Source: Candidatus Aenigmatarchaeota archaeon (GTDB taxonomy: Archaea; Aenigmatarchaeota; Aenigmatarchaeia; QMZP01). From it: 64,000 nt of DNA. The DNA lies in contig JACPNN010000021.1 of assembly GCA_016185435.1 (NCBI GenBank), positions 269-64,268 of the forward strand, read 5' to 3'. Below are positions 27,810 to 64,000 of this stretch, piece after piece. Position 1 is the first letter of the stretch. Every line of letters begins with the position of its first letter. Made by a program: the position numbers and the translations under genes. Below the pieces are notes generated by a model, which did no database searches, had not been told where the DNA came from, and saw only the letters and a program-made list of their open reading frames with translations.

Positions 27810-27893
27810 TCACCAATATTAACACCCAACCACAATTTCTTTTATGGCTCCAATCCTTTATCAGTATTTCCTGAATTTCCCCCTAAGGTCAGA
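27810..27893 (+). repeat. ~80-bp direct repeat copy 1: duplicate of the BatA-like gene start region
   Basis: tcaccaatattaacacccaaccacaatttcttttatggctccaat...ttcctgaa aligns at ~85% with 29220-29297, which contains the real start (MASILDQYFLNPY) of gene 29254-31107; copy 1 would encode MAPILYQYFLNFP then stop. Confidence 0.65.
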
Positions 27894-28538: not shown

Positions 28539-28635
28539 CCATTATCATTTGCTGAAAGGCCTTAAAAAGGAAAAATTTATGCCAGCCGCACATCCCCTTC
28601 CAGTGAGATGCCATCTGCAAGACGCTAGTAGTATC

Positions 28636-29020: not shown

Positions 29021-29219
29021 GGGGACGGCACGTCCCCATGCTGGAGGCCCCATGGGACAGCATGTCCCCATAAGTGCAGTTTTGTTTTGGAATCGATAGC
29101 GCCGAAGTTAATGGATATGGAACTTTCCTTCAAGCTCATGGATGCCAACCCTTGGAATCCGGGCATGTTTTGAGGAATAAGCGCCCGCATTTGCCGCACA
29201 GTAGGGATATGAGAAATAT

Positions 29220-29297
29220 TCACCAATATTAACACCCTTCCACAATTTCTTTTATGGCGTCAATACTCGATCAATACTTCCTGAACCCCTACGGCCT
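29220..29297 (+). repeat. ~80-bp direct repeat copy 2 (authentic BatA-like gene start)
   Basis: See 27810-27893. Confidence 0.65.
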
Positions 29298-46285: not shown

Positions 46286-46342
46286 AAGAAAAATAAGGAA
46301 GCTGCAAATAAGTATTAATAGGGCCTAGGAAGAAATATCTAT

Positions 46343-46729
46343 ATGCACCCGAAGATGAGCAGGTTCGGGGACGCGAAGGCCGAGATAAAGAAGGCCTCAT
46401 CGCTTCCCGGAGCCGAGTTCCTGGATAAGGCCTACAGAATCCTGTATTCCAGATGCAAATACACAGGGTTCGGCCTTTTTGGAGAGAACGGCCAGAAGGC
46501 TGTTTTCGGGGCTATTGGAGCGGATTCTGAAAAAGCAATTGAAAAGGCAAAAGCATCCGGTAAAATATCGACCTCAGGGAAGGCCATTTCAGCTCCCATA
46601 GGAAACAATGGCAATGTACTGGCATATATGGCGATAGAGAGCTTCCTGCCTTTCTTTGATGACCTTGACAGGAATATTGTCGAGTTCTTGGCAAAGACGC
46701 TGGAGGAGAAGATGGGGGAGCTGCAATAA
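46343..46729 (+). CDS. GAF-like small protein, paralog 1
   Basis: 128 aa; KYTGFGLFGENGQKAVFG... resembles the GAF/fRMsr-like core; 85% identical paralog at 47266-47652. Confidence 0.35.
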   Translation: MHPKMSRFGDAKAEIKKASSLPGAEFLDKAYRILYSRCKYTGFGLFGENGQKAVFGAIGADSEKAIEKAKASGKISTSGKAISAPIGNNGNVLAYMAIESFLPFFDDLDRNIVEFLAKTLEEKMGELQ

Positions 46730-47037: not shown

Positions 47038-47265
47038 TTTTTCACTCCTCTTTTCTTATATGCCAAAACAGACTCAATTGAAGCTGCCTTGGAGATGCCG
47101 GCCAAAGAATCAACTTCCTTGCTAGGGCTGTATGCCGCCCAACATCCAGTTAAATAATGTACGACTGGTTTTTAAAGGCATACTCTCGGCAGGGGAGCCG
47201 CTATGGAGCGTCAAAAGAACTGCTTTCTTTATTTTTTGAAATAGGGCCTCGGAAGAAATATCTAT

Positions 47266-47652
47266 ATGCACCCCAAGATGAGCAGGTTCGGGGACGCGAA
47301 GGCCGAGATAAAGAAGGCCTCATCGCTTCCCGGAACCGAGTTCCTGGAGAAGGCCTACAGCATACTGTATTCGAGATGCAAGTACACAGGGTTTGGACTT
47401 TTCGGAGAAAACAACCAGAAAATTGCTTTTGGAAATATCGGCACTGACTCTGAAAAAGCAATTGAAAAGGCAAAGGCATCCGGTAAAATATCGACATCTG
47501 GAAAAGCTATTTCCTCATCCATCGGAAACAATGGAAACGTTACCGCTTATCTGGCCATCGAGAGCTTCCTGCCTTTCTTTGACGATCTGGACAGGAATAT
47601 GGCGGAGTTCCTGGCGAAAATATTGGAGGAGAAGGCCGGAGAGCTGCTATAG
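47266..47652 (+). CDS. GAF-like small protein, paralog 2
   Basis: Tandem paralog including duplicated upstream region. Confidence 0.35.
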   Translation: MHPKMSRFGDAKAEIKKASSLPGTEFLEKAYSILYSRCKYTGFGLFGENNQKIAFGNIGTDSEKAIEKAKASGKISTSGKAISSSIGNNGNVTAYLAIESFLPFFDDLDRNMAEFLAKILEEKAGELL

Positions 47653-48906: not shown

Positions 48907-49086
48907 TTAGAACCTTCTTTCAGGCTTGTGCTTCTGGAAGCAGTCCCTGCAGTAAACAGGCCTGCCTTCAGTGGGCTTGAAAGGCACTTTGCATGGCTGT
49001 CCGCAGTCCGAACAGGTTGCATCGTGCTCTTCTCTCGGGCCGAAGCTTCTTCCGCCGAATCGGCCGCCGCCTTCTCTGAATGCCAT
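48907..49086 (-). CDS. 59-aa zinc-ribbon protein, copy 2 (not in track)
   Basis: MAFREGGGRFGGRSFGPREEHDATCSDCGQPCKVPFKPTEGRPVYCRDCFQKHKPERRF. Confidence 0.5.
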   Translation of the reverse strand: MAFREGGGRFGGRSFGPREEHDATCSDCGQPCKVPFKPTEGRPVYCRDCFQKHKPERRF

Positions 49087-49375
49087 TTTTTACACTCCTC
49101 TTGCTTTATATGCCAAAAACAGTCTCATTCCGAGAGCTGCCTTGGAGATGCTTGCCAAAGAAACAAGTTCCTGGCTATGGCCGAAAGCCACTCAACACCC
49201 AGTTAAATAATGTACAATTGCTTTTTAAAGGCATACCCCCTGTAGCGTGCCGCTATGACATCAGTTCTCAGGCGTGATCCAGGGGAAGAAACGGTGGCGC
49301 TCTCCAGCGGCCTTTTTAAAACGTATTTAAATGCATGCTACTATAGTATTAACATCAATTTTGAGCCCCTCCACT

Positions 49376-49600
49376 ATGGATATCCTGTCGCATGCGCTTG
49401 TGCCAAAGCACGAGCTCTTGAGTGAGAAGGACAAGCATGAAGTTCTTTCAAAATACGGTATCCCTGCCGGCAAGCTCCCAAAAATGCTTGCTTCTGACCC
49501 TGTCGCCCAGGTTATCCAGGCCAAAGCAGGCGATGTTGTCAGGATTCTCAGGAAAAGCGAGACAGGCGGAGAGGGCATATATTATCGGCTTGTAGTGTGA
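49376..49600 (+). CDS. rpoH: RNA polymerase subunit H (Rpb5-like)
   Basis: MDILSHALVPKHELLSEKDKHEVLSKYGIPAGKLPKM...GDVVRILRKSETGGEGIYYRLVV matches RpoH; track ORF start at 49331 is likely too far upstream. Confidence 0.75.
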   Translation: MDILSHALVPKHELLSEKDKHEVLSKYGIPAGKLPKMLASDPVAQVIQAKAGDVVRILRKSETGGEGIYYRLVV

Positions 49601-51057
49601 TCATGTATACGCAGCTTCTCAAAAAATTCGAGGAAGAGAGGGGATTTATCAGTTTTCAGATTAGGAGCTTCAACAAATTCATAGAGAATGATATCCAGAC
49701 AATAATGAGCGAGATAGGAGAGGTCAACCTCACCCCTGAAACCAATGCCATGAAGCTGCTTTTTGGGGAAGTCGAGCTCGGAAAGCCTGTCATCAAGGAA
49801 GCCGACGGCTCAACGAGGCAGATTTACCCCAACGAGGCCAGGATAAGGAACCTCACCTATTCCACGCCCATTTTCGTCTATATGATCCCTGTGGTGGAGG
49901 GTGTGAAGGAGAAGCCTGAGAAAGTCCATATTATCGACATGCCCATCATGGTGAAGAGCAAGCTCTGCTCCACCTCCGGCCTCTCGAAAGAGGAGCTGAC
50001 CGAAAAAGGCGAAGATCCTGAAGACCTGGGGGGCTATTTCATTGTTAACGGGACCGAAAGGGCCGTTGTGATGATAGAGGAGATAGCCAATAATATACCA
50101 ATCTTCGAGAACGACAATGGCCTGATAAAGGTCAGGATAAATTCAGAAAGGTCAGGCTTCAAGCAGAAGCATCTGGTGGAAATGAAGCCTGACGGAGAGA
50201 TAACAATCACTTTTGCAAACATCAGAAGGCTTCCTATAGTCACGCTTCTCAAGGCCCTTGGGATGGAGACAGACAAGCAGATATGCGACAATGTCTCCCA
50301 GGACGAGAAAGTTCTCAATGAGTTCTATATCAACCTCTACAAAGAGGAGGTAATCACAACAGAGGATTCGAAAGAGGCCATAGGCAAGAGGCTGAAAATC
50401 GCGAGAGAGTACAGGGATGAGAGGATAAACCAGATACTTGACAAGTATCTTCTGCCTCATATAGGCCAGACGCCCGAGGAAAGGTCCCTCAAAGCGATGG
50501 CCATAACCCGCATAATAAGGAAGTCAATATCCCTTTACCTCGGAGAGATATCAGCCGATGACATTGACCACTACTCGAACAAAAGGCTGCTGATGGCCGG
50601 GGACCTGCTGGGGCAGCTGTTCAGGAGCATCCTTCTGGGAAGGTGGGGGCTGATAGCCAAGATGAATTACAATTACCAGAAGCTCGTCAAGAGAGGAAGG
50701 ACGCCCTCCATACAGGGCATAGTGGAGGCTGATGCGGCCACAAAGCAGATACTCTCGAGCATCGCAACAGGCAACTGGATAGGCGGCAGGACAGGAGTGA
50801 GCCAGAGGCTTGACAGGAGCAGTTATGTGAGGACAATCAGCCACCTGAGGAGCATTGTCTCGCCGCTGACATCGACGCAGGAGCATTTCTCAGCAAGGGA
50901 GATACATCCGACAGAATGGGGCAAGATATGCCCTGCAGAAACGCCTGAAGGAAGCTCAATAGGGCTGAGGAAGCATCTGGCAATCCTTGCGGAAATTACA
51001 GCCGGGATGAGCCCTGAGGAGAGCGAGAAGGTTTCAAAGTTCATCCAGGCGCTTTGA
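49597..51057 (+). CDS. rpoB2: RNA polymerase subunit B'' (N-terminal part of split RpoB)
   Basis: Conserved RpoB N-terminal blocks; start overlaps rpoH stop. Confidence 0.8.
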   Translation: MIMYTQLLKKFEEERGFISFQIRSFNKFIENDIQTIMSEIGEVNLTPETNAMKLLFGEVELGKPVIKEADGSTRQIYPNEARIRNLTYSTPIFVYMIPVVEGVKEKPEKVHIIDMPIMVKSKLCSTSGLSKEELTEKGEDPEDLGGYFIVNGTERAVVMIEEIANNIPIFENDNGLIKVRINSERSGFKQKHLVEMKPDGEITITFANIRRLPIVTLLKALGMETDKQICDNVSQDEKVLNEFYINLYKEEVITTEDSKEAIGKRLKIAREYRDERINQILDKYLLPHIGQTPEERSLKAMAITRIIRKSISLYLGEISADDIDHYSNKRLLMAGDLLGQLFRSILLGRWGLIAKMNYNYQKLVKRGRTPSIQGIVEADAATKQILSSIATGNWIGGRTGVSQRLDRSSYVRTISHLRSIVSPLTSTQEHFSAREIHPTEWGKICPAETPEGSSIGLRKHLAILAEITAGMSPEESEKVSKFIQAL

Positions 51058-51065
51058 GGGATATT

Positions 51066-51320
51066 ATGGCAAAAGACATCATACTGTCGACAACACAGGA
51101 AATACCGGGAAGGGGGAGTGGCAAAGATCCTTGGGATAGTCAAAGGAAACTCCATACGCTCGAGAGGCGTCGGAGGGCATATAGCGCTTCCCTTGAAAGC
51201 CTTCTCGGAGGGGAGATAACAGCTTATCTGGAGAAGCGCATGAAGATAGAGTCTTCAGAAGTGATGCAGAACGCCGCTGAAATATTGGCATATGGGACAA
51301 CGATAAAATTGAGATCATAA
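51066..51320 (+). CDS. 84-aa ORF in the extra DNA between rpoB'' and rpoB'
   Basis: MAKDIILSTTQEIPGRGSGKDPWDSQ...; stop TAA overlaps the rpoB' ATG (TAATG); no recognisable homology. Confidence 0.3.
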   Translation: MAKDIILSTTQEIPGRGSGKDPWDSQRKLHTLERRRRAYSASLESLLGGEITAYLEKRMKIESSEVMQNAAEILAYGTTIKLRS

Positions 51321-53137
51321 TGGGGGATAAAGGAATGGCTGAACCGAAATTCGCTGATGTCTATCTGGACGGAAAATTCATCAAGACGATAAACAATCCT
51401 GAAAAATTCGTGAATGAGATTAGGGACAGACGAAGGAAGGGTTTGCTGCCATACCAGCTCAACGTAGGCTATTATCCCCAATCAAACGAGATCAAGGTGT
51501 TCACGGACAATGGCAGGGCGAGACGGCCCCTTATAATCGTCGATAACGGGAAGCCCAGGCTGACAGAGCAGCATCTCAAGGATCTGAAGACAGGCAAGAT
51601 AGACATTTCATATTTGCTGAGGAACGGAATAGTCGAGTTTCTGGATACTGCCGAAGAGGAAAACGCTTTCATAGCATTGAAGAATGAAGACCTGACGCCT
51701 GAGAACACGCATCTGGAAGTGGATCCAATCGCCGTCTTCGGGGTATCCGCAGCCCTCATACCATATGCCGAATACAACCGCGGGGACAGGGTGAACTATG
51801 GCGCCAAGATGGCGTGCCAGGCCATAGGAGTCTTCGCATCCAATTATATCCTGCGCACTGACACCAAATCAAATATCTTCACCTATCCCCAGGAGCCTCT
51901 TGTGGCCACAAAGATGGGCACTGTGCTGAAGAAATATCCCCAGGGGCAGAATGTGATAGTGGCCATAATGAGCTATGACGGCTACAACATGAACGACGCG
52001 GTGATACTTAACCGCGCTTCAGTCGACAGAGGCCTGTTCCGCACCTTCTATTTCCGCACTTATGAGGCAGAGAAAAGGAAATATTTCGGCGGCCAGGAGG
52101 ATGAAATCTCAATCCCTCAGCCTGGAACGAAAGGCCACAGGGGAGAAAAGGCGTACAAGGATCTGGCCGAGGACGGGATAGTAAGCACTGAAACGCCTGT
52201 TGAAAGCGATTCTGTCCTTGTCGGGAAGATATCGCCCCTGAGATTCCTGTTCGGCGAGGAGTTTGCCGCAGAGCTGGACAACAAGAGGGAGGCCAGCATA
52301 ACTGTGAGGCATGGCGAAAGAGGGATTGTAGATGCCGTGGTTCTCAGCGAGACCCTTGACGGTGCCCAGTTAATCAAGGTCAGGGTGAGGGATGAAAGGA
52401 TACCTGAAATAGGCGACAAATTCGCCTCAAGATACGGGCAGAAAGGCGTCTCAAGCCTTCTGATGAATAGCGAGGACATGCCTTTCACCTCTGAAGGCAT
52501 AGCGCCTGACATAATCTTCAACCCACACGCCATACCAAGCAGGATGACGATAGGCCAGCTTCTGGAGCTGCTGAGCGGCAAGTATGCGGCAATGGCAGGC
52601 AGGCAATTTGATGCCAGCCCTTTCAACCATATGAAAGAGCAGGATGTGAGAAATGCGATGAGGAAGATGGGCTTCAGGGATGACGGGAAGCAGACTTTGT
52701 ATGACGGAAGGACAGGGAGGAAGTTCGACGTTCTGATATTCGTGGGCCCATGCTATTACTTCAAGCTCGACCACATGGTCACAGACAAGATACATGCAAG
52801 GAGCAAGGGGCCTGTGACACTTTTGACAAAGCAGCCGACTGAAGGGCGGGCCAAGAGAGGCGGGCTCAGGCTTGGGGAAATGGAGCAGCAGTGCATCCTC
52901 GGCCATGGGGCTGCGCTCACGCTTAAGGAGAGATTCGATTCGGACAAGACATCCCTGCCCGTCTGCACCAAGTGCGGCATGCTTGCGATCCATGAGACGG
53001 CAAAGCACAAGATATACTGCAGCATGTGCAAGTCAAGCGAGATCAAATGGGTGGAGACAGGCTATGCATTCAAGCTCTTCCTGGATGAGCTCAAGGCCAT
53101 AGGCATATACCCCAAGCTGGAAGTGGAGGAAATCTGA
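51320..53137 (+). CDS. rpoB1: RNA polymerase subunit B' (C-terminal part of split RpoB)
   Basis: Conserved RpoB C-terminal blocks and C-terminal zinc ribbon CTKCG...CSMCK. Confidence 0.8.
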   Translation: MGDKGMAEPKFADVYLDGKFIKTINNPEKFVNEIRDRRRKGLLPYQLNVGYYPQSNEIKVFTDNGRARRPLIIVDNGKPRLTEQHLKDLKTGKIDISYLLRNGIVEFLDTAEEENAFIALKNEDLTPENTHLEVDPIAVFGVSAALIPYAEYNRGDRVNYGAKMACQAIGVFASNYILRTDTKSNIFTYPQEPLVATKMGTVLKKYPQGQNVIVAIMSYDGYNMNDAVILNRASVDRGLFRTFYFRTYEAEKRKYFGGQEDEISIPQPGTKGHRGEKAYKDLAEDGIVSTETPVESDSVLVGKISPLRFLFGEEFAAELDNKREASITVRHGERGIVDAVVLSETLDGAQLIKVRVRDERIPEIGDKFASRYGQKGVSSLLMNSEDMPFTSEGIAPDIIFNPHAIPSRMTIGQLLELLSGKYAAMAGRQFDASPFNHMKEQDVRNAMRKMGFRDDGKQTLYDGRTGRKFDVLIFVGPCYYFKLDHMVTDKIHARSKGPVTLLTKQPTEGRAKRGGLRLGEMEQQCILGHGAALTLKERFDSDKTSLPVCTKCGMLAIHETAKHKIYCSMCKSSEIKWVETGYAFKLFLDELKAIGIYPKLEVEEI

Positions 53138-53419
53138 TATGAGAGCCATGCTTGATTTTCTGGCCGCGGGGATTTCACAGGCAGCATGTGCAATCAGGCC
53201 CAAGCTTGCAGCTATCGCCAGCTCTATCAGCCCCTTTTCTTTCGCCTCTCCTTCATTTTTTTCTCCCCGCCTTTTTTCTGCAAGCCAGAAAGATACAGCC
53301 CATTCAAAATCAAGCTATATCTCCACTCTCGATCTCGTCTGTTCCATGCCTTTGGCTCCGCATATTTCTTCCATGTTCCCGTTCAGGCTGCACGAGCTGC
53401 CTAAGAAAGGAGGGACAAT

Positions 53420-55906
53420 ATGCCGGCACGGCTGAAATCGCTCGAATTCATCCTTCTTGATTCCGAAATAGTGAAGAATATTGCCAGAGTAAGAATTGTG
53501 AACAGCGAGCTTTACGATGCCGACGGCTACCCGATAGAAGGAGGGGTCATGGACCCAAGGCTCGGAGTCATTGATCCCGGCCTGTACTGCAGGACATGCA
53601 ACTGCGGCATAGGGGAATGCATGGGCCATTTCGGCTACCTGGAATTTGCAAGGCCTGTGATCAATGTGCTTTATGTGAAGATCATCCATGAGCTCATGAA
53701 GAAGATATGCTGGAAATGCAGCAGGCTGATCAACCCGGCAGACATAGTGGAAGAGACGAGCACCCAGCCTTCAAAATGCTCCTATTGCGATGCAGTCCAG
53801 AGGAAGGTTAAGTTTGTCAAGCCTTACACATTCTATGAGGACGGCAATGAGCTTGATGCGCTGACGATAAGGGAGAGGTTTGAAAAGATTCCTGCAGGAG
53901 ACACGAAGACGATGGGCTTCAATGGGGGAAGGCCTGAATGGCTGATAATGACCCTCTTCCCTATCCCGCCTGTCACAATGAGGCCTTCCATCACGCTTGA
54001 GACAGGGGAAAGGAGCGAGGATGACCTGACGCACAAGCTTGTCGACATCGTCCGCATCAACCAGTCCCTCAAGGAGAATATAGACATCGGCGCGCCGGAA
54101 TTCATCATAAGGGACTTATGGGAGCTTCTTCAGTACCATGTCTCGACATACTTTGACAATGAGCTGACTGGGGCTCCCCTGGCAAGGCACAGGTCCGGCA
54201 GGCCGCTGAAAGGGATAATACAAAGGCTGAAAGCCAAAGAAGGCAGGCTGAGAGGCAATCTCCTTGGAAAGAGGGTCAACTTTTCTGCCCGGACAGTGAT
54301 TGCGCCCGACCCGAGGCTGAGCATAAACGAGGTTGGCGTTCCAGAGCTTGTGGCAAAGGAAATCACCATCCCGGTGTCCGTCACCAGCCTTAACACAGGC
54401 CATGTCAAGCAGCTGATAAAGGAGGGGCTGGTCAATTATGTCACGAGGCCGGACGGCAGGAAGATAAAGGTCACGGAGGACAACAAGAAGGAAGTTGCGG
54501 AGAACATCAGCCTTGGATGGAGCATCGACAGGCAGCTCATGGATTCTGATGTTGTGATATTCAACAGGCAGCCAAGCCTGCACAGGCCCTCCATAATGGC
54601 CCACAGGGTCAGGGTTATGCCAGGCAAGGCCTTCAGGATCAATCCTTCTGTATGCTTCCCGTACAACGCTGACTTCGACGGCGATGAGATGAACCTCCAT
54701 GCACTGCAGAACGAGGAGGCGAGGACAGAGTCAACTGGCCTGATGCTTGTCGAGAACAATATCATAAGCCCCAAGTTCGGAGGGCCTATAATAGGCCTTG
54801 ACCTTGACCAGCTTTCAGGCTCTTATCTGCTGACAGCCAATGATGTGGAGATGACAAGGGAGGAGGCATGCCAGCTGCTGGCTTTTGCCGGGATAGACAT
54901 TGTGCTTCCGGAAAAGAAGACCTTCAGCGGCAAAGAGATATTCAGCTTCCTGCTCCCTGGAAAGTTCAGCATGGAGCATGATGCGCATTTCGCAAAAAGC
55001 CTCGACAGCAAAGAGAAGGAGAAGCAGGACGGGATAGTGACAATAAGGGACAGCATGCTTGCAAGAGGGAGGGTTGATGAGGCCTCTGTAGGCGCAGAGT
55101 CAGGCTATATAATAGGAAGGATAATAAGGCTTTTTGGCAATGCAGCTGCTGCGCAATTCATAGACAATGCCGCCAGGCTTGCGACAAGCTTCCTCCTCAG
55201 GAGAGGGTTCTCTGCGGGGCTCTCAGATCTTGACCTCCCTGAAAGGGTGAAGAAGGACATCAAGGGAAGGCTGCAGCAGGGAATGAAACATTCAGAGGAT
55301 CTGATCTCGCAGTACAAGGAAGAGGAGCTTGAGATACTTCCGGGCATGACGCCTGAGGAAAGCCTTGAAACCCATATACTCAATGCGCTCTCAAAGAGCA
55401 TAAGCGATGTCAGCACCACAGTTTCTCTTCACATCAAGGAGTCAGACATAGTGGCAATGGCAAAATCAGGGGCAAAGGGCAGCTTCATCAACATATCCCA
55501 GATGATCGCCGGAGTGGGCCAGGAAACCATACTTGGCGAGAGAATAAATTCAGGCTATATAGGCAGGACTTTGCCGCATTTCATGGCCAATGATTTGTCA
55601 GCCACAAGCAGGGGCTTTGTGGGCAGAGGGTTCAGGGAAGGCCTGATGCCATATGAGATATTCTGGGACATCATGAATGGAAGAGAAGGCCTGATGGACA
55701 AGTCCCTCAGGACAAGGAAATCAGGGTACATGCAGAGACGGCTGGTAAATGCCCTGCAGGACCTCAAGGTCAAGAATGATCTGACGGTAAGGAATTCAGT
55801 CAATGAGATTGTCCAGTTCAAGGCCGGGGAAGACGGGATGGATGTGAGCAAAACCGATTTCGGGACGCTGAACTGGAAGAGCATTATCGAGCAGGAAGGG
55901 CTATGA
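53420..55906 (+). CDS. rpoA1: RNA polymerase subunit A'
   Basis: Conserved A' N-terminal blocks (YDADGYPIEGGVMDPRLGVIDPGLYCRTCNC..GECMGHFGYLEFARPV) and the NADFDGDEMN active-site motif. Confidence 0.85.
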   Translation: MPARLKSLEFILLDSEIVKNIARVRIVNSELYDADGYPIEGGVMDPRLGVIDPGLYCRTCNCGIGECMGHFGYLEFARPVINVLYVKIIHELMKKICWKCSRLINPADIVEETSTQPSKCSYCDAVQRKVKFVKPYTFYEDGNELDALTIRERFEKIPAGDTKTMGFNGGRPEWLIMTLFPIPPVTMRPSITLETGERSEDDLTHKLVDIVRINQSLKENIDIGAPEFIIRDLWELLQYHVSTYFDNELTGAPLARHRSGRPLKGIIQRLKAKEGRLRGNLLGKRVNFSARTVIAPDPRLSINEVGVPELVAKEITIPVSVTSLNTGHVKQLIKEGLVNYVTRPDGRKIKVTEDNKKEVAENISLGWSIDRQLMDSDVVIFNRQPSLHRPSIMAHRVRVMPGKAFRINPSVCFPYNADFDGDEMNLHALQNEEARTESTGLMLVENNIISPKFGGPIIGLDLDQLSGSYLLTANDVEMTREEACQLLAFAGIDIVLPEKKTFSGKEIFSFLLPGKFSMEHDAHFAKSLDSKEKEKQDGIVTIRDSMLARGRVDEASVGAESGYIIGRIIRLFGNAAAAQFIDNAARLATSFLLRRGFSAGLSDLDLPERVKKDIKGRLQQGMKHSEDLISQYKEEELEILPGMTPEESLETHILNALSKSISDVSTTVSLHIKESDIVAMAKSGAKGSFINISQMIAGVGQETILGERINSGYIGRTLPHFMANDLSATSRGFVGRGFREGLMPYEIFWDIMNGREGLMDKSLRTRKSGYMQRRLVNALQDLKVKNDLTVRNSVNEIVQFKAGEDGMDVSKTDFGTLNWKSIIEQEGL

Positions 55907-55910
55907 TATG
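55893..55910 (+). repeat. 18-bp perfect direct repeat copy 1 at the rpoA'/rpoA'' junction
   Basis: aggaagggctatgatatg also at 56075-56092; contains rpoA' stop TGA and what would be the overlapping rpoA'' ATG. Confidence 0.85.
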
Positions 55911-56074
55911 GAATATCAACACCAGTATCTAGAGGGATGTAGTATAGGCTTTTCTTCCAAAGAAAAGCCCATCCGGCAAAAGAAGGATATACCAATGATA
56001 AGCATATCCTTCGGTTGCTGGGGGTTGATAAGGGCCCGCAGAGGCCCTTATTGGGATACTTCCCTTCTGCGCCA

Positions 56075-56092
56075 AGGAAGGGCTATGATATG
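56075..56092 (+). repeat. 18-bp perfect direct repeat copy 2 (contains actual rpoA'' start codon)
   Basis: See 55893-55910; 164 bp of unrelated sequence lies between the copies. Confidence 0.85.
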
Positions 56093-58714
56093 ACGAAGAA
56101 AATAGAAGACAATAGCTTAGAAGGAGTGATTGACAAAACAATGGATGAAATGCTTGAAACTTTCCCCCAGAAGCTGAGGGAAGATGTTCTCCAGTACATG
56201 GACGAAAAAGCCCTGCCTTTCGACAAGAGAGAGAGGATTGTGCAAAAGGTCTTCCAGCTCTACAGGCAAAGCCTGTACAACCCTGAGGAAGCCATAGGCA
56301 TTGTTACTGCCCAGAGCCTGTCCGAACCCGCCACCCAGATGTCACTGGACTGCTCTGAGAAGGTCATAGTGAAACGCAACAAGGCGATTAAAATAATCCC
56401 TATCGGCTCTTTCATAGATCTTATTATGGAGAATGAGGGGAGGAAAATGATTAATGGATGGGAGGTATGTGATGTGTTAGGTCTAGAGCTATATGTTCCG
56501 AGCATTACGCAGAATGAAAAAATAGAATGGAGACAGATAAAGGAGGTAAGCAGGCATCCTGCTCCTGAAACGCTGCTGGAAATAAGAACAAAGTCAGGCA
56601 GGAAAATTGTGGCCACAGATTCCCATTCTTTTTTCGTAAGGAAAAATAACAGGATAATTGCAGTTTCCGGGGCAGAGCTGGAGGCGGGTGAGAGGATACC
56701 TGCATTATCATTCCTCCCTGAAAACTGCATCCAGCACTTAGAGACAAAACAGATAGTCGGGGACGGGAAATATGCCAAAAAGCGTTTGGCAGAGACGCTT
56801 CAGCTGAATGGCAGGTTGGGGTGGCTTTTCGGGGCTTATCTGGCAGAAGGAAATGCGGCCAAATTCTATGTCTCCTTCTCGAACACAGACAAGAGGTTTT
56901 TGTCCCAGATAAGGGATATTGCGAAATCGTTTGGCTTCACGTTCAATGAGTATGACAACAACAGAGGATTTGCCTTGGGCCATGGCATCAGGATAAACTC
57001 GAAGCAGCTTTCCATGCTGATGGAAAGGGCATGCGGGGTAGGCGCAGCGAATAAGAAAGTGCCTGATTTTGCCTTCAGCGCAAACGCTGATTTTGTTTCA
57101 GGTATCCTGAGGGGATATTTCGATGGTGATGGAAGCGTGTCTGTTGAGAGAAAGGTAATAAGGGCGTCATCAAAATCATCGGAGCTTATTGATGGTATAG
57201 CTCTCCTCTTGACAAGGTTCGGGATATTTGCCAGAAAATCAAGGGACAAGCAATACACGCTTTCGATACCATACAAGCATGCAAAGGCATTCAGCAAGAT
57301 AGGCTTTTCAGTTGGTTACAAGGGTGAGCAGCTTGATATGCTGTGCAATCTTTTTGAAAAGGATAAAGACAGATATGAGGACTTCATTGACATGGTAGGC
57401 GGGTTTGACGATATAATGGTCAGTCTTTCTAGGAAGCTGAACCTGCCTGCAAGATATGTAAACAGCTGCACAAAAAGGCAGAAGATTGGAAGGACAGCGC
57501 TTTTGAGGCACATTGAAAGGTTCAAAAGGGCTTCCATGGAAAAATCCATAGATATTGAAAAGGAGCTGGCCGTATTAAAAAGAATGCACGAATCTGATGT
57601 TGTGTGGGATGAGATAGTTTCTATTGGCAGGATGAGGCCTTCCAGCAGCTATGTTTATGACTTCAGCGTGCCTGGAACAGAGAGCTTTACAACATTTGAC
57701 GGCATAGTCACGCACAATACCATGCGTACCTACCATTTCGCCGGCACAGCAGGCATACAGGTTACATTAGGTTTGCCCAGAATGATAGAGATATTCGACG
57801 CGAGAAGAGAGCCTACCACCCCGACAATGATTGTCTACGTGAACAGGGGATTGCAGGACAAGGAGAAGGTGAAGAAGATAGCCGAGAACATCAAGGAAGT
57901 GAAGGTGAAGAACATAACCATAAGCGTCTCAATGGACCTGACAGAATCCATAATACGGTGCAGGATGAACGCAAAGAAGCTCAAAGAGCTTGAAATCGAT
58001 CCCAAAAAACTCCCCAGCATGATGAAGATAAGGGGGAACAAGGTGGAGGTTGAGGGGGACGACCTTATCATAAGGACAAAGAAAAAGGATCTGAGGAATC
58101 TCCACAAGATCAAATTCGCTTTGCTTGACAGCAGGATAAAGGGAATAAAAGGCATAACACAGGCGATAGTCCTCAAGGAAAGGAACGAGTGGGTGATAAA
58201 CACACTCGGGAGCAATCTAAAGAAAGCCATACTGATAGAAGGCGTGGATACAGACAGGACGACAAGCAACAACATCTTTGAGGTCTGCGAGGTGCTGGGA
58301 ATAGAGGCTGCAAGGAATGCGATAATCCATCAGGCAGCCTATGTCATGGAGGAGCAGGGGCTGAACGCTGACATGAGATACCTGATGCTGCTTGCTGACA
58401 TGATGACGGTGACGGGCCAGATAAGATCCATAGGGAGGTACGGGATTTCAGGCGGGAAGAGCAGCGTGCTCGTAAGAGCCAGCTTCGAGGAGACAAAGAA
58501 GCATCTTGTAGGGGCGAGCGTTAAGGGAGAGAAGGATGAGTTCAGGGGAACCATAGAGAACGTGATGGTGAACCAGCTTGCTCCCATAGGCACGGGCGCC
58601 TTCAACCTTGTCGGGGAGATACCGTCTATTGGAGAAGAGAAGAAAGAGGGAGACAGGAAGAAAGAAAAGGAGATAAAGGTCAAGGAAGCCAAGAAAAAGG
58701 GGAAGGAAGAATAA
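56090..58714 (+). CDS. rpoA2: RNA polymerase subunit A'' interrupted by an intein
   Basis: Exteins ...AQSLSEPATQM | TMRTYHFAGTAGIQ... reconstitute the conserved EPxTQMTxRTFHxAG motif; extein total ~415 aa. Track ORF start (TTG 56015) is probably too far upstream; ATG at 56090 sits in the duplicated junction. Confidence 0.8.
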   Translation: MTKKIEDNSLEGVIDKTMDEMLETFPQKLREDVLQYMDEKALPFDKRERIVQKVFQLYRQSLYNPEEAIGIVTAQSLSEPATQMSLDCSEKVIVKRNKAIKIIPIGSFIDLIMENEGRKMINGWEVCDVLGLELYVPSITQNEKIEWRQIKEVSRHPAPETLLEIRTKSGRKIVATDSHSFFVRKNNRIIAVSGAELEAGERIPALSFLPENCIQHLETKQIVGDGKYAKKRLAETLQLNGRLGWLFGAYLAEGNAAKFYVSFSNTDKRFLSQIRDIAKSFGFTFNEYDNNRGFALGHGIRINSKQLSMLMERACGVGAANKKVPDFAFSANADFVSGILRGYFDGDGSVSVERKVIRASSKSSELIDGIALLLTRFGIFARKSRDKQYTLSIPYKHAKAFSKIGFSVGYKGEQLDMLCNLFEKDKDRYEDFIDMVGGFDDIMVSLSRKLNLPARYVNSCTKRQKIGRTALLRHIERFKRASMEKSIDIEKELAVLKRMHESDVVWDEIVSIGRMRPSSSYVYDFSVPGTESFTTFDGIVTHNTMRTYHFAGTAGIQVTLGLPRMIEIFDARREPTTPTMIVYVNRGLQDKEKVKKIAENIKEVKVKNITISVSMDLTESIIRCRMNAKKLKELEIDPKKLPSMMKIRGNKVEVEGDDLIIRTKKKDLRNLHKIKFALLDSRIKGIKGITQAIVLKERNEWVINTLGSNLKKAILIEGVDTDRTTSNNIFEVCEVLGIEAARNAIIHQAAYVMEEQGLNADMRYLMLLADMMTVTGQIRSIGRYGISGGKSSVLVRASFEETKKHLVGASVKGEKDEFRGTIENVMVNQLAPIGTGAFNLVGEIPSIGEEKKEGDRKKEKEIKVKEAKKKGKEE
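56342..57718 (+). other. intein (~459 aa) with LAGLIDADG homing endonuclease in RpoA''
   Basis: Begins SLDCSEKV (Ser1) directly after conserved QM; ends VTHN followed by Thr; LAGLIDADG motifs LFGAYLAEGNA and LRGYFDGDGSV. Confidence 0.7.
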
Positions 58715-58793
58715 ATCCGGTTAATTTCATATTTCAGAACGATTCACCAGCAAAAACTGCCTATCCATATATTATCCCTTCTCCAAATACTAA

Positions 58794-59753
58794 TTGATGA
58801 TAACTGCCACTACCTTCGATGGCAAGTTCCAGAAGGCGCAGATAGGCGCAAAGGATGTTAAAAGGCTCATAAACTCCCATAAGCTTGTCTGGATAAACTG
58901 TGCTTCGTTATCGCATGGCGAACTGAAATCCGTATTCGAGGGTGTGGAGAGCATACCTCATTTCCTCGTTGATTACTGCACAAGAAGGCAGAGGCCCAGG
59001 ATAGACCAGCACGGAGACACAGTCTTCCTTGTTTTCGATATGCTCAGCTATGAACACTCTTTAAGGAACGAGCAGCTGAACGCTATTGTAGGAGGGAATT
59101 TTGTTTTGACAATCACAGGCAAGAATCTACGGCAGATTGACAGGATTGAAGAGCTTGCAGGAACCAATTCTGCTCATATAAGGAAACTGGGAAAGGCATA
59201 TCTGCTTTACCTTATACTCGACAGCATAGTGGACGACTATGGTCTGATCCTCGACAAAATAGATGAGGACATGGAAAGGCTCGAGGCGTCGCTGCTAGAA
59301 GGGTCCAAGGAAAACATGCACCATAAGATCATCCAGATGGGAAAGATCATGGCCAAAATCTGGAGGAGCATAATGCCGGAGAAAGAGATTTTCCACAGTC
59401 TGGGGAGGAGCGAGTTCAATATGCTGGGAGGCCATGCAGCAGTATATTTCAGGGACACGGCCTCTGACTTGCTGACGATTTCCGAGAGGATTGAAATGCA
59501 AAGGGAGACGATTTCAAACCTGATGGAGGTCTATGCCTCTTCTATTTCAAACAGCCTGAGCACCATAATGAAGATGCTTACTGTCCTGACAGCGGTCCTT
59601 CTTGTTCCAACGCTTATATCAGGCATATATGGCATGAATCTTGCCTATCTTCCCATTGCAAACCATCCCAACGGCTTCCTGGTAATGATAATTATCATGA
59701 TCATTTCCATGCTGCTGCTTCTGCTCGCCTTCAGACTGAAGAAGTGGATATGA
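58794..59753 (+). CDS. corA: CorA-family Mg2+/Co2+ transporter
   Basis: C-terminal two TM helices with YGMNLAYLP (GMN motif). Confidence 0.7.
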   Translation: MMITATTFDGKFQKAQIGAKDVKRLINSHKLVWINCASLSHGELKSVFEGVESIPHFLVDYCTRRQRPRIDQHGDTVFLVFDMLSYEHSLRNEQLNAIVGGNFVLTITGKNLRQIDRIEELAGTNSAHIRKLGKAYLLYLILDSIVDDYGLILDKIDEDMERLEASLLEGSKENMHHKIIQMGKIMAKIWRSIMPEKEIFHSLGRSEFNMLGGHAAVYFRDTASDLLTISERIEMQRETISNLMEVYASSISNSLSTIMKMLTVLTAVLLVPTLISGIYGMNLAYLPIANHPNGFLVMIIIMIISMLLLLLAFRLKKWI

Positions 59754-59834
59754 CATGGGAAACTAGAATTTCTGGTAAATCTATTTTTCGCTATAGGAAA
59801 CAGAATTGATATGCTTAGAGTTGACTAGCAGAGA

Positions 59835-61475
59835 TCAGATCGGGCAGACAAGCTTGCCAAGCTTCTCTGTCAGCCTCGCATTCTCAGAATAATCCACGGG
59901 GACATCCATAATCACTATATTGTCCGTTTCCAGAGCCTTTTTCAGGGCAGGCATGAATTCCCCTGCCGAATTTATCCTTATCCCGATGCACCCAAAACTC
60001 TCCGCATACATGACAAAATCAGGATTGGTGAAAGACATTCCAAATTCTGATCCAAACTCTTTTACCTGCTTCCACTCAATCATTCCGTATTTGCTGTCAC
60101 TGAAGATTATCACCACAAACGCCAGGCCCAGCCTTTTTGCAGTCTCTATCTCCTGCGAATTCATCAGAAAGCCGCCATCGCCTGTAATCGCCACTATTTT
60201 TCTGTCAGGGTGGACAAGCTTTGCAGCCACGCAGCCCGGGAGAGCTATCCCCATCGTGGCAAACCCGTTTGATATTATCACTGTGTTGGGTGAGTAAGCC
60301 GGATACAGCCTTGCTATCCACAGCTTGTGCATCCCGACGTCGCTCAGAATTATGTCCTTATCCCCCAGAGCCTGCCTGACATCATAAAGTATCTTCTGCG
60401 GCTTCATGGGGAAATGGCTGCTGTTTCTGAACTCCTCGAACTCGCCTTTTGTCAGTTTTTTGAGAGAATTCATGTATTCAAAGCTCTTGTTGAAGCCTGT
60501 CAGCCTTGTCAGCTTGTAGAGAATAGTTTTCATTTCTCCGACAAGCTCCACGTCAGGATCATAGTGGGCATCCACTTCCGCCCTCACGCTGTCTATGTGT
60601 ATCAGTTTCTTGTCGCCCTCCGGATTCCAGAACGCGGGGGAATATTCGGCTATGTCATACCCCACAGTTATCACCAGATCTGCCTTCTCGAATCCGCACA
60701 TTATGTAGTCCTTTGCCTGCAGGCCTATGGTAGACACAAAAAGCTCATGCTTTGCAGAAATGGCTCCCTTGGCCATGAACGTGTTGGCCGCATAAATCCT
60801 GTTTTTCTCTGCGAAATCGGCCAGCTCCCTGCACGCTTCGGCCCTGATCACGCCATTGCCCGCAAGTATTATGGGGTTTTTCGAATTTTTTATGAGAGTT
60901 GCCGCAGCTTCAAAGGCATCTTTTGTCGGCCTGAAGGAAGGGTTACTTGCAACCTTCAGCGGCTTAAGATCCTTTTCCAGATCCAGGCATGCTATTGCCT
61001 CTGATATCTCGATATGCGCCGCGCCTTTCTTCTCGATCTGCGCTATCCTGAATGCCTTTCTTATCACTTCGGGTATCACATCGGCATGATGCACCCTCGC
61101 GTTCCATTTGGTGATGGGCCTGAATGCATTGACAATATCTATGTACTGGTGGCTCTCTTTATGGGCCCGCCTCAGGTCAGCCTGGCCTGTTATGGCAATC
61201 AATGGAGCACGGTCCATGTTTGCATCTGCGACCCCTGTAAACAGGTTGGTCGCTCCTGGCCCCAAAGTGGAGAGGCACACTCCGGCCTTGCCTGTCAGCC
61301 TGCCATAGACATCGGCCATGAAGGCAGCGCCCTGTTCATGCCTTGTCAGGACAAACTTTATCCTGGAATTCCTCAAGGCCTCAAGGATGTCCAGATTCTC
61401 TTCCCCCGGAAGGCCGAATATGTATTCTGTTCCCTCATTCTCGAGGCACTTCACAAACAGCTCTGCGGCTTTCAT
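59835..61475 (-). CDS. ilvB: thiamine-diphosphate-dependent enzyme of the acetolactate synthase large-subunit family
   Basis: 546 aa; ThDP-binding GDGGF...N fold (ITGDGGFLMNSQEIETAKR) and N-terminal Pyr-domain blocks. Confidence 0.6.
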   Translation of the reverse strand: MKAAELFVKCLENEGTEYIFGLPGEENLDILEALRNSRIKFVLTRHEQGAAFMADVYGRLTGKAGVCLSTLGPGATNLFTGVADANMDRAPLIAITGQADLRRAHKESHQYIDIVNAFRPITKWNARVHHADVIPEVIRKAFRIAQIEKKGAAHIEISEAIACLDLEKDLKPLKVASNPSFRPTKDAFEAAATLIKNSKNPIILAGNGVIRAEACRELADFAEKNRIYAANTFMAKGAISAKHELFVSTIGLQAKDYIMCGFEKADLVITVGYDIAEYSPAFWNPEGDKKLIHIDSVRAEVDAHYDPDVELVGEMKTILYKLTRLTGFNKSFEYMNSLKKLTKGEFEEFRNSSHFPMKPQKILYDVRQALGDKDIILSDVGMHKLWIARLYPAYSPNTVIISNGFATMGIALPGCVAAKLVHPDRKIVAITGDGGFLMNSQEIETAKRLGLAFVVIIFSDSKYGMIEWKQVKEFGSEFGMSFTNPDFVMYAESFGCIGIRINSAGEFMPALKKALETDNIVIMDVPVDYSENARLTEKLGKLVCPI

Positions 61476-61775
61476 GCCAAAGTTTTTTTGATCTATAATT
61501 TAAAAAGCAGTATCTGAGATGAATGCCTTTATTCATGACATGGAGGCCGACATAGCCCTCGGCGATACGATGAACAGGCCTGCTTTTCTAAACCCCGACG
61601 GCTCGCTGAGGAAGTTTGTTATGGTGACCGCAAATTCCATCTCCTCCGTTGCCTTCACGGTAGACGCATCTACCAAGCTTTTCTAGTGCAAGACAGAAAA
61701 GCTCTGCTTGAATTCTTAGGCACAATCCAACGGCAACCATCTCTTTAAAAAACTGTTCCCTTAATACTTAAGAGG

Positions 61776-62036
61776 ATGATTCCCATGGCCTACAATACTG
61801 ATGATGTTGCCAATGAAATCGAGAAAATGTGCTTAAATCTAGCTGGCAAACTGCGCGGAATTGTGGATGATTTGAAATCATACCCGCCTGAAGTGCTTCA
61901 GAACTATGTAAAGGGCAACGTCCACTATTTCAAACAGTTTAGGGAGATCGATCAAATACTGCAAGGAACGAATCTTCACGAAAGAGAGGAGTATATCAGC
62001 AGTGCTCTAAGAGAACTGAAAGAGGAACGCAAGTGA
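61776..62036 (+). CDS. hypothetical protein (86 aa)
   Basis: ORF only. Confidence 0.25.
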   Translation: MIPMAYNTDDVANEIEKMCLNLAGKLRGIVDDLKSYPPEVLQNYVKGNVHYFKQFREIDQILQGTNLHEREEYISSALRELKEERK

Positions 62037-62146
62037 TAAAGCAGTCCCTTTTAGGTTGTCAACACCCTTTTACTGTCAACCAGCCAGAGCAACAACACGT
62101 TTTGGCTCTTCAATGCTACGGCCGAAAAGAAAGCCTTCATCCCGGC

Positions 62147-63517
62147 TCATTGGCTGTTGACTACAACAGTCTTAATATTCACAAACTCCCTTATGCCGAA
62201 TTCCCCCAGCTCCCTCCCATATCCTGATTTCTTCACGCCGCCGAAAGGCAGCTTGGGATCGCTTTTGACTATCGTGTTCACAAAAACATTTCCTGCCTCT
62301 ATCTGCCTTGCAAGCCTTTCCGCCTTTTCAGTGTCTGAAGACCATATGCTTGCGCCAAGGCCATAAGGGGTGCCATTAGCTATTCTTACCGCTTCCCTTT
62401 CGTCTTCCGCTGTTATCATGGGCATGACAGGCCCGAAGACCTCTTCCCTGTAAACTTCCATATTATCCTTTATGCCTGAAAGGAGGGTCGGCTGGTAGAA
62501 GAATCCCCTGCCTCCAGGCCTACCCCCTCCAAACAATATCTTTGCTCCCTTCGTCCTTGCATCCTCAACTTTCCTTTCCACATCCTCAAGTATATCCCTT
62601 TTAGCCAGGGGGCCTATGTCTGTCGATTCCTCAAGAGGATTCCCGACTTTAAGCTTTTCAAGATTCCTGACAAGCGTGTCCTCAAATTCACTTTCAATCC
62701 CCTTTACCACAATGAACCTCTTTGCGGCTATGCAGCTCTGGCCCGCATTTTTCATCCTTGCATCCACAGCATTTGAAGCGGCTTTCCCAATGTCCGCATC
62801 CTCCAGGACTATGAAAGGGTCTGATCCCCCCAGCTCCAGCACGCATTTCTTGATGTTTTTTCCTGCAATTGAAGCGACCTGCATCCCCGCTGATGTGGAG
62901 CCTGTAAGGCTTACGGCATCCACATGGTCCGATTCCACCAGCCTCATCGCGGCAGAAGAATCGACCAATAAGCTTCTGAAAACAAACTCAGGAAAGCCGG
63001 AATCGGCAAAAATCTCCTGAATTTTCAGTGAACACCGGGGCACATTGCTCGCATGCTTCAGGACCACAAGATTTCCTGCAATCATAGCAGGGAGAGCAAA
63101 CCTCATCACCTGCCAGAAGGGGAAGTTCCATGGCATGATTCCCAGGACAAGGCCCAGCGGCTCAAAGGTTATATAGCTTTTTTTATTCTGCGTGTCTATT
63201 ACCTCCTTTTCCAGGAATCCTTTTGCTGATTTTGAGTAATAATCGCACAATAAGGCGCATTTCTCTATTTCAGCAATGGCCTCCCTTATCGGCTTTCCCA
63301 TCTCATCCGTCACTATCCTTGATAATTCATTTTTCCTCCCGAGCAGCCTTTCCCCAAGGGCTTCTGCCAGCCTCAGCTTTTCGCCTATATCCGTGTTTTT
63401 CCATTCATGGAACCTGCCCTTTGACTCTTTCAGGGCAGCAGATGCCTGTCTGTAATCCATTCCCTCAAATTCGGCCATCACCTCTTCTGTGGCAGGATTG
63501 ACTGAGAAGAATTTCAT
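62147..63517 (-). CDS. NAD(P)-dependent aldehyde dehydrogenase (succinate-semialdehyde dehydrogenase-like)
   Basis: LELGGSDPFIV (catalytic Glu motif), GQSCIAAKRFIV (catalytic Cys), GTPYGLGASIWS. Confidence 0.7.
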   Translation of the reverse strand: MKFFSVNPATEEVMAEFEGMDYRQASAALKESKGRFHEWKNTDIGEKLRLAEALGERLLGRKNELSRIVTDEMGKPIREAIAEIEKCALLCDYYSKSAKGFLEKEVIDTQNKKSYITFEPLGLVLGIMPWNFPFWQVMRFALPAMIAGNLVVLKHASNVPRCSLKIQEIFADSGFPEFVFRSLLVDSSAAMRLVESDHVDAVSLTGSTSAGMQVASIAGKNIKKCVLELGGSDPFIVLEDADIGKAASNAVDARMKNAGQSCIAAKRFIVVKGIESEFEDTLVRNLEKLKVGNPLEESTDIGPLAKRDILEDVERKVEDARTKGAKILFGGGRPGGRGFFYQPTLLSGIKDNMEVYREEVFGPVMPMITAEDEREAVRIANGTPYGLGASIWSSDTEKAERLARQIEAGNVFVNTIVKSDPKLPFGGVKKSGYGRELGEFGIREFVNIKTVVVNSQ

Positions 63518-63776
63518 AAATCTCTCCTTGAATTATAATGAAGGCAGGTTTAAATAAAAATTTCAGTTCGGAACAGATACCCTGCAAGAGGCAGTTATGG
63601 CTTTATTATATGGTAAGCACAAATACTTAAGTGATAGGAACATGGCAGCAAAAAAAAGAAAGGCGGCAAGGAAGAGATAAGGGATATTTCATTTTCATTT
63701 CAAATCCCGTTTCGATTTTTATTTTCAATTTCTCATTTGTTTTTCATCAGTAAGGGAGGCAGCTATCTATTTGAAT

Positions 63777-64000
63777 AAGGCGCTAATTTCCTTTTTTGAA
63801 AGAATCAGCTTGAATTTTCTGAATTCGATTTTCTTGTCATCAAAAAACTCTTCAACCTTTTTCTCATCCTTCTCTTCAACGGCCAGACAGCATCTGGCAA
63901 GCTTGGCATATGAAATCGAGCCGAGGAGGCCTTTCCTGTTGTATGTGTATTTCCCACTTTTCGACTTGTCCTTATAGCCGAAAAGGCCCCTGCTTATCTT
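63777..64000 (-). CDS. hypothetical protein, 5' end beyond window
   Basis: Reverse-strand ORF ending ...EEFFDDKKIEFRKFKLILSKKEISALFK with stop at 63777-63779; track lists only an antisense + ORF here. Confidence 0.3.

Follow-up and report, generated by a model that had tools for sequence, protein, structure and literature searches.

Three probably unrelated spacers at the subunit gene joins of an Aenigmatarchaeota RNA polymerase operon, each crossed by an open reading frame

Why should every join between the large-subunit genes of an RNA polymerase (rpo) operon carry extra DNA? The question is raised by a 64,000-nucleotide stretch of the 97-kb contig JACPNN010000021.1 (the window) from an uncultivated Candidatus Aenigmatarchaeota archaeon, in which the genes rpoH, rpoB'', rpoB', rpoA', and rpoA'' (the latter four called B'', B', A', and A'' below) follow one another in that order. 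The spacers measure 262 bp at B''/B', 282 bp at B'/A', and 183 bp at A'/A'', and our re-measurement returned the same lengths as a preliminary description of this DNA. Taken as a whole, and including the translational relay discussed below, the explanation that we consider probable is that the spacers represent three stretches of DNA with no relation to one another, which entered or arose at the gene joins at different times. Logan assemblies built from several runs agree with the window at 100% identity over positions 48966-55960 and 56043-64000. Because these independent assemblies are identical, the spacers, the frameshifts in the B''/B' spacer, and both junctions of the A'/A'' insert are real and do not stem from assembly error. 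Misassembly, which the preliminary description had named as a possible source of the pattern, can be set aside, both insert junctions being 100% identical in independent Logan assemblies from seven samples.

The rpo operons of ~20 related genomes were compared. The closest relative is L006, whose A' protein is 90% identical to that of the window, followed by a second tier at 67-70% A' identity (L001/L042/L043, L044, L045, L046, and L047), with the remainder at 57-66%. The premise of the preliminary description, that these genes normally abut, holds for most of the Aenigmatarchaeota fetched, in which the rpo junctions overlap or abut, but not for several other lineages, which have spacers of 60-200 bp. 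Two Aenigmatarchaeota encode B'' and B' as a single continuous frame, an unsplit rpoB (L005, 5513-8785; L008, 946-4242), and all the other fetched relatives have a split rpoB. The A'/A'' gap is ≤18 nt in every fetched relative that covers the junction and is 2 nt in L006. At B''/B' the gap is 167 bp in L006, and in the 67-70% tier the genes overlap or lie ≤36 bp apart. At B'/A' the gap is 282 bp in L006, 169 bp in L001, 174-186 bp in L044, 264 bp in L045, and 196 bp in L046, and there is none in L047. The three spacers are therefore distributed differently among the relatives, indicating three events of three ages.

These ages, together with the unrelated sequences of the spacers, support the earlier proposal that the three arose independently, but they do not support its companion, that all three are the same kind of insertion: one is a conserved small-ORF (open reading frame) spacer, one a dead gene, and one a fresh insert. 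Nor are the spacers uniformly private to this genome, for relatives share a conserved spacer at B'/A' (six genomes), although not at A'/A''. An alternative, also raised in the preliminary description, is that one kind of mobile element, or one process targeting stop/start overlaps, made all three. Every spacer does lie exactly at a gene join, and a stop/ATG motif is kept at each left edge. However, no sequence is common to the spacers, or to the spacers and the rest of the window, and only one junction has a duplication. The ages also differ, the A'/A'' spacer being unique to this genome, the B''/B' spacer at most shared with L006, and the B'/A' spacer present in six genomes. In addition, one spacer is a ybjQ pseudogene, and the target repeat at A'/A'' is unlike the insert ends, with no significant likeness between them (p 0.27-0.78). 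When the B''/B' and B'/A' junction zones of the window, L006, and L001 were aligned locally, no old, decayed duplications emerged, the scores being at shuffle level (p 0.41, 0.47, 0.19, and 0.62); the B'/A' junction zone of L006 gave p 0.02, but the match is off-register. A single process behind all three spacers is thus largely refuted already, and we regard it as highly improbable.

The A'/A'' spacer is a recent insertion with a target duplication. The 18-bp sequence AGGAAGGGCTATGATATG occurs exactly twice, as perfect copies flanking 164 bp (Table 1). It is the sole repeat of its kind in the window and the only significant duplication among the three junctions, it scored better than 2000 of 2000 shuffles of the junction zone, and by our own arithmetic the expected number of exact 18-mers recurring within 200 bp in 64 kb is ~2e-4. 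The site is empty in L006, which has TGATTATG with its 2-nt gap and reads ...CAGGAAAGGTTGTGATTATGAAAGG... at the orthologous place, without the insert. The empty site in L006 and in the other relatives covering the junction upholds the earlier reading of a target-site duplication that regenerated both gene ends, that is, the A' stop on one side and the A'' ribosome-binding site and ATG on the other. Copy 1 keeps the former and copy 2 the latter because the target was the stop/start overlap itself. In the sequence of events that we favor, 164 bp of noncoding, hairpin-rich DNA would have integrated recently through cuts staggered by 18 bp, and fill-in would have duplicated the target.

Two other origins of the A'/A'' arrangement were considered and rejected. 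A tandem duplication of the junction is contradicted by the insert ends, which are unlike the A'' start or the A' end. A joint arrival of insert and rpoA'' intein from a donor resembling L001 was set aside since the N-extein of the window is still nearest to that of L006 (0.70 vs 0.51), the region being fast-evolving in all pairs. The window (56090-56140) and L006 (11436-11483) have in common a poorly conserved N-terminal extension of A'', 16-17 residues long, which precedes the methionine aligned with the A'' start elsewhere; both have retained the frame that opens at the junction ATG.

What kind of DNA the insert is can be approached through its fold and through the way it breaks assemblies. 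Three of the six perfect hairpins with a stem of ≥9 bp in the whole 64 kb lie within these 164 bp, and an imperfect inverted repeat of 10 pairs closes the structure (55931-55941 with 56057-56068). Compared with shuffled sequences, the fold has a z of -6.0 on the minus strand, where it forms a very stable four-way junction, and of -3.2 on the plus strand. Logan contigs end inside the insert at 55960 in three samples and at 55957 in one, and start at 56043 in three others. Logan uses k = 31 and reports only contigs >150 bp. The ends at 55960 and 56043 lie k-1 = 30 nt inside positions 55931 and 56072, the first of which is the outermost pair of the closing stem, and a shared node of 142 bp would go unreported because it falls below the 150-bp limit. 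The break points fit, as an indirect sign, the trace of a core that occurs in more than one context, and hence a multi-copy element resembling a MITE (miniature inverted-repeat transposable element). The insert would then most likely be a copy of a small nonautonomous mobile element whose 142-bp core is found at more than one location within the source community.

Further copies of the insert, the search for which had been suggested in the preliminary description, did not come to light. Searches with blastn-short and nhmmer across the window and 37 loci (335 kb fetched) detected no other copy. In IMG/VR, two insert-specific patterns gave no hits, and a third, generic palindrome pattern gave chance hits only. 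The concatenated six-frame peptides of the insert, compared with 5.8 billion proteins, yielded 589 candidates, none of which scored. A covariance model of the minus-strand fold, run over 250 kb, matched only the window copy and a 32-nt contig end.

These negatives are what would be expected if the insert were a one-off capture of foreign or filler DNA, through repair of a staggered break or a template switch, with the contig breaks caused by hairpin-linked sequencing trouble or internal polymorphism. The breaks at 55957/55960 and 56043 do coincide with the loops of hairpins 1 and 3, and the inverted repeat stops short of the insert end, with 20 bp of unique sequence between it and the left direct repeat. 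However, the contig ends are identical across six samples (three at 55960 and three at 56043, with 55957 as a single 3-nt variant), which points to graph topology rather than loss of coverage. They also fall exactly k-1 inside the closing stem, and the same contigs cross a 9-bp hairpin at 61676-61703 unbroken. Three long, unrelated hairpins within 164 bp moreover resemble an evolved element more than random filler. We consider a one-off capture rather unlikely. The mobile-element interpretation has to contend with the same missing second copy, with the coincidence of break points and hairpin loops, which hairpin-linked variation or artifact could produce, and with the inverted repeat, which is imperfect and is set back from the direct repeats by 20 bp on one side and 6 bp on the other instead of being at the insert ends. 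Two further points weigh against it: 18 bp is an unusual length for a duplication, and the only transposase of the window, of the IS1595 family (15344-16114), has a terminal repeat (TTAGGTGATTAGG...) unrelated to the insert ends.

A third possibility is that the insert specifies a structured or regulatory RNA and was kept for that function; it could be a small antisense RNA, or an element that governs processing or stability between the A' and A'' cistrons. The very stable minus-strand four-way junction, with a lower z (-6.0) than the plus strand (-3.2), agrees with this, and L011 and L020 likewise have structured spacers between rpo genes (z -4 to -5.8). On the other side, no Rfam family matched even at E up to 10, the best models being of microRNA-type hairpins at 13-22 bits against thresholds of 34-100. 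The 250 kb modeled contained no homologs from which covariation could be judged, and the insert holds no terminator-like site, no intrinsic terminator having been found in any of the spacers. The insert is also absent from the closest relative, L006, and so cannot be an old function. An RNA function appears quite improbable. The insert contains no tRNA, and it has neither a Pfam match in any frame nor a homologous protein.

Among known mobile elements, the insert is best filed as MITE-like rather than as a proven member of any such family. It resembles MITEs in being small (164 bp), noncoding, strongly self-complementary, and intergenic, and in its exact 18-bp direct target duplication at a site that is empty in L006; its core may, by the indirect sign from the assembly graph, also occur in more than one context. 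It differs in that its inverted repeat is short, imperfect, and subterminal, its true ends not being inverted repeats, and in that the sequences searched contained neither a second copy nor a partner transposase. A duplication of 18 bp is longer than those made by most DDE transposase families. Elements of the IS200/IS605 type have subterminal hairpins and insert without target duplication; the insert has hairpins, but is flanked by its 18-bp duplication. An 18-bp stagger is within the range of casposons, in which a Cas1-type integrase acts and staggered nicks are filled in, giving duplications of 1-27 nt with a median of 15; some casposon terminal repeats contain palindromes (PMC4046053). Casposons are, however, ~100 times larger than the insert, the window ORFs scanned included neither a Cas1 gene nor one for a family-B polymerase, and we found no description of miniature casposon derivatives in the literature. 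Casposon-type integration may thus serve as a lead, not as a test. The insert provides a clean example of an insertion in a DPANN archaeon whose relative has the site unoccupied, and its duplication, at 18 bp, is unusually long; if a family of copies exists, the insert would point to an integration enzyme with an 18-bp stagger. To our knowledge, little has been described on mobile elements in DPANN archaea.

The B''/B' spacer has a different ancestry. The 84-aa ORF that the preliminary description placed there (ORF84) is present. It begins with an ATG 9 nt past the B'' stop, or alternatively with a TTG that overlaps this stop, and it closes with a TAA that runs into the B' ATG as TAATG. By itself, ORF84 matches the Pfam profile YbjQ_1 (PF01906) at 25.1 bits (cutoff 23), and only with its C terminus (profile positions 80-102), whereas a two-frame chimera whose middle is taken from the other frame (VAKILGIVKGNSIRSRGVGG...) scores 57.8 bits (E 1.8e-15). 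Intact YbjQ proteins match 51078-51314 by tblastn and, in a second frame, 51118-51213. The spacer thus matches the YbjQ/UPF0145 family along its whole length once the two frames are joined, but it is frameshifted twice, has no full-length match in one frame, and lacks ~20 residues near the C terminus even in the two-frame match. The frameshifts are identical in independent assemblies, ORF84 was not called by the Logan gene caller, and it is absent from the protein collection. Judging from these disruptions, ORF84 is a frameshifted, internally deleted pseudogene of the ybjQ family: a gene of that family would once have stood between the two halves of subunit B and would have decayed through two frameshifts and a deletion of ~20 codons.

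The closest intact YbjQ proteins are 38-42% identical and are encoded in bacterial, non-rpo contexts, no intact ybjQ was found between B'' and B' in the fetched relatives, and the B''/B' spacer of L006 can be aligned with that of the window over only the first ~35 nt. The spacer is not unusually structured (z -0.6 on the plus strand and -2.0 on the minus strand). A weaker duplication, TTGAG...ATAATGG, had been suspected at this junction; it is at shuffle level (p ~0.41), the longest exact repeat is 6 nt, and both sites consist of a ribosome-binding-like stretch followed by ATG. Even if the relay and mobile-element readings fail, ORF84 serves as a caution: a dead gene can present itself in an rpo operon as an ORF whose stop and start are coupled.

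The B'/A' spacer is an old conserved feature in which the reading frame is conserved and the peptide barely so. The spacers of the window and L006, both 282 bp, align over their full length, and counterparts are found in L001, L044, L045, and L046, giving six genomes in all. The TGATATG overlap that the preliminary description saw at the end of B' is indeed there, and in the relatives it is kept as TGAnATG or ATGA: in all six spacers an ATG at offset -3 (ATGA) or +2 (TGAnATG) from the B' stop opens a frame that bridges the spacer. These frames have 62-98 codons and end -3 to +15 nt relative to the A' ATG in 6/6 genomes; in the window, the stop of the bridging frame, ORF98, lies 13-15 nt past that ATG. 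Dinucleotide shuffles kept the frame open in 10.5, 8.3, 4.3, 3.7, and 31.6% of cases in the five genomes tested. Each of the six spacers has a C/T-rich tract, although GC content varies from 30 to 66% among them. The spacer is much older than the A'/A'' insert and carries a fast-evolving small ORF coupled to the B' stop and ending at the A' start. The junction has no duplication (p ~0.47), the spacer has no excess structure, and the idea that it is an insertion gives way to that of a conserved small-ORF spacer in six genomes, the very kind of finding that the preliminary description had said would overturn it.

Does ORF98 encode a protein that matters? About 41% of the aligned sites differ between the B'/A' spacers of the window and L006 (63% identity when indels are counted), a divergence similar to that at the wobble positions of the flanking genes, and the codon changes in ORF98 comprise 48 nonsynonymous and 17 synonymous ones. 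ORF98 and its counterparts could specify a real small protein, such as an accessory factor made together with RNA polymerase. The ORF is kept in six genomes and annotated by NCBI, the lengths of the first two indels that separate L006 from the window are divisible by three, the differences have a weak codon periodicity (37/24/46), and a stretch rich in Ser, Pro, and Phe recurs. Yet the peptide is almost unconserved, as the excess of nonsynonymous changes and the wobble-like divergence attest, and changes at strain level number four nonsynonymous to four synonymous. Lengths range from 62 to 98 aa, and the Ser/Pro/Phe content follows from the CT-rich DNA. A phmmer search with ORF98 against 1.84 billion representative proteins returned only ORF98 itself and two low-complexity hits, with no homolog, and neither in the window nor in L006 does any of the six frames of the spacer match Pfam. 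We consider a functional small protein unlikely.

Closely related strains differ in the C/T tract, among other places. L001 and L043, whose A' proteins are identical, have 24 differing sites in 10 kb, of which 8 lie in a 66-bp stretch of the B'/A' C/T tract (L001, 3722-3787); six of these are C/T transitions, and none puts a stop in the bridging ORF. Hypermutation of the tract was considered and rejected, single-nucleotide differences clustering in coding regions too and patchy recombination being an adequate explanation. Two islands in the otherwise 41% diverged spacer, CAATCAGGCCCAAG (53198-53211) and TTCTGCAAGCCAGAAAG (53275-53291), have the same sequence in L006 as in the window; the latter of the two can fold into a hairpin of 5 bp.

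Unlike as they are, the three spacers of the window are all crossed by an ORF coupled at both ends: ORF84, ORF98, and, through the whole A'/A'' insert, ORF61, which has no Pfam match. All 3 operon spacers are bridged in this way against 1 of 11 other codirectional gaps of 90-450 bp in the window (p ~0.01 by our own Fisher test). In shuffled sequences the frame stays open in 2.1% of cases for ORF61, 10.5% for ORF98, and 24% for the out-of-frame part of ORF84. Published work in an archaeon and a bacterium found that termination-reinitiation coupling is lost at gaps of ~20 nt and that overlaps are enriched among the subunits of heteromeric complexes (PMC10666635). Because the spacers are bridged, and in view of that published loss of coupling and enrichment of overlaps, we tentatively suggest that DNA between the coupled genes of an essential complex is kept or admitted only with a bridging frame, which would be translated for the path of the ribosome and not for its peptide. 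The frame in each spacer would begin at the upstream stop and end at the downstream start; ribosomes finishing one subunit gene would start again on this frame, travel through the spacer, stop at its end, and start once more on the following gene. Spacers that maintain such a relay would be the ones that selection retains or lets in at all, and the suggestion in the preliminary description that selection filters insertions agrees with the data. The operon would then display such a relay at three stages, with the A'/A'' insert as the fresh one, the ybjQ remnant as a gene in decay, and ORF98 as an old small ORF that evolves fast and has persisted in six genomes.

The proposed relay resembles the termination-reinitiation coupling of Huber et al. 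(2019, 2023; PMC6728339, PMC10666635) in that ATGA, TAATG, or TGAnATG stands at one or both ends of the bridging ORFs, and overlaps of these classes have been shown to couple translation. It differs in that coupling, here read from anatomy alone, would pass via an intermediate ORF with an irrelevant product, be it a pseudogene, a fresh insert, or a fast-evolving ORF, an arrangement of which we found no description in the literature, and in that two bridging ORFs stop 13-15 nt past the downstream ATG and not at it.

The bridging ORFs might instead be by-products of composition and history, the spacers being neutral and B', A', and A'' each using its own ribosome-binding site; this, too, we hold to be a real possibility. 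Several observations favor it and weigh against the relay. Pyrimidine-rich sequence has few stop codons, which inflates the number of open frames expected by chance, and of the five B'/A' spacers that were shuffled, three have a chance openness of 8-32%. The ancestor of ORF84 was a real gene. Shine-Dalgarno-like sequences precede B' and A', which may not need coupling, good ones being found before A' (AAAGGAGGG) and A''. The B''/B' spacer of L006 is not fully bridged, its ORF ending 36 nt before the B' start, and the spacers of a distant clade (L009, L011, L020, L021, and L023) have no bridging ORF. The relay was formulated, and the comparison with other gaps designed, after the pattern had been seen. 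No sign was found that the C/T tract or the insert hides the downstream ribosome-binding site, the unpaired probability from -14 to +3 being within the shuffle range in six of seven cases. Against by-products stand the B'/A' spacers, 6/6 of which are bridged by a frame whose start is coupled to the B' stop; two of them are AT-rich, with a chance of ~4%, and the product over three independent lineages is ~1e-3 by our arithmetic. ORF61, open at 2% chance, and the control gaps, of which only 1 of 11 is bridged, weigh on the same side. If the relay is real, the insertions that can be tolerated by an essential operon with balanced stoichiometry would follow a simple rule, and the long persistence of some short, unconserved hypothetical proteins between subunit genes would be explained.

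Table 1. Features of the rpo operon and its spacers (window coordinates)
Feature	Coordinates	Strand	Basis or remark
rpoH (Rpb5 C-terminal domain), first operon gene	49376..49600	+	gene call on identical Logan contig L013 (411-635), Pfam PF01191
rpoB'' (N-terminal half of subunit B)	49603..51057 (start 49597/49603)	+	Pfam Rpb2 domains 1-3; gene call L013 638-2092
B''/B' spacer, 262 bp, ybjQ-family gene remnant	51058..51319	+	Pfam YbjQ_1, tblastn
ORF84, open frame through ybjQ pseudogene, 84 aa	51066..51320	+	not called by Logan gene caller
rpoB' (C-terminal half of subunit B)	51320..53137	+	Pfam Rpb2 domains 4-7
B'/A' spacer, 282 bp	53138..53419	+	homologous spacer of equal length in L006
ORF98 (NCBI MBI2676076.1, hypothetical protein), bridging small ORF	53139..53435	+	starts 1 nt after B' stop (TGATATG)
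Pyrimidine (C/T)-rich tract in B'/A' spacer	53231..53280	+	equivalent in all six spacers
rpoA'	53420..55906	+	Pfam Rpb1 domains 1-5; identical to NCBI MBI2676077.1
Direct repeat copy 1: last A' codons, TGA stop, duplicated ATG	55893..55910	+	exact repeat
ORF61, crosses whole insert	55908..56093	+	starts at duplicated ATG (TGATATG); TGA overlaps A'' ATG (ATGA)
Inserted DNA, 164 bp	55911..56074		no counterpart in relatives
Insert core, 142 bp	55931..56072		deduced from contig breaks in the assembly graph
Hairpin 1, 10-bp perfect stem, 3-nt loop	55947..55969		
Hairpin 2, 18-nt arms, 83% complementary, 9-bp perfect core	55973..56021		
Hairpin 3, 9-10-bp perfect stem, 6-nt loop	56027..56051		
Direct repeat copy 2: purine-rich ribosome-binding region and A'' ATG	56075..56092	+	exact repeat
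rpoA'' with LAGLIDADG intein	56090..58714	+	Pfam Rpb1_5, Intein_splicing, LAGLIDADG_3

The distant-clade spacers at B''/B' and B'/A' that have no bridging ORF are strongly structured (z -4 to -5.8) in L011 (6803-7000) and L020 (6835-6967 and 8786-8890), and the spacers of these two genomes have AATCGGGAAGAGAGA in common.

Alignment with intein-free relatives placed the rpoA'' intein at ~56342-57718; it comprises 459 residues with a LAGLIDADG endonuclease, has Ser at position 1, and ends in ...HN/T at the C-terminal junction. The site is occupied in L001/L042/L043 and L007 and empty in L006, L044, L045, L003, and L012. A related A' protein (P0012, 1314 aa) has an intein splicing domain, and inteins therefore occur in A' as well as A'' in this group. 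A second intein within the 64 kb lies in a gene for a MoxR-type AAA ATPase (36641-39475; Pfam Intein_splicing and LAGLIDADG_3).

The IS1595-family insertion sequence spans 15331-16153 and encodes a 256-aa DDE transposase on the minus strand, between 29-nt imperfect inverted repeats. Elsewhere in the window, a 122-bp unit is repeated in tandem in three to four copies (28611-29026; 84-98% identical), and the array is bracketed by a 66-nt direct repeat with copies 1410 bp apart (27810-27875 and 29220-29285). A 300-nt repeat in two copies that are 87% identical (46317-46616 and 47240-47539) extends over paralogous 128-aa ORFs without a Pfam match, and a 19-nt motif, ATATACAA(T/G)TGTA(C/G)CTA, occurs four times (46746, 47688, 47733, and 47755) just downstream of these ORFs.

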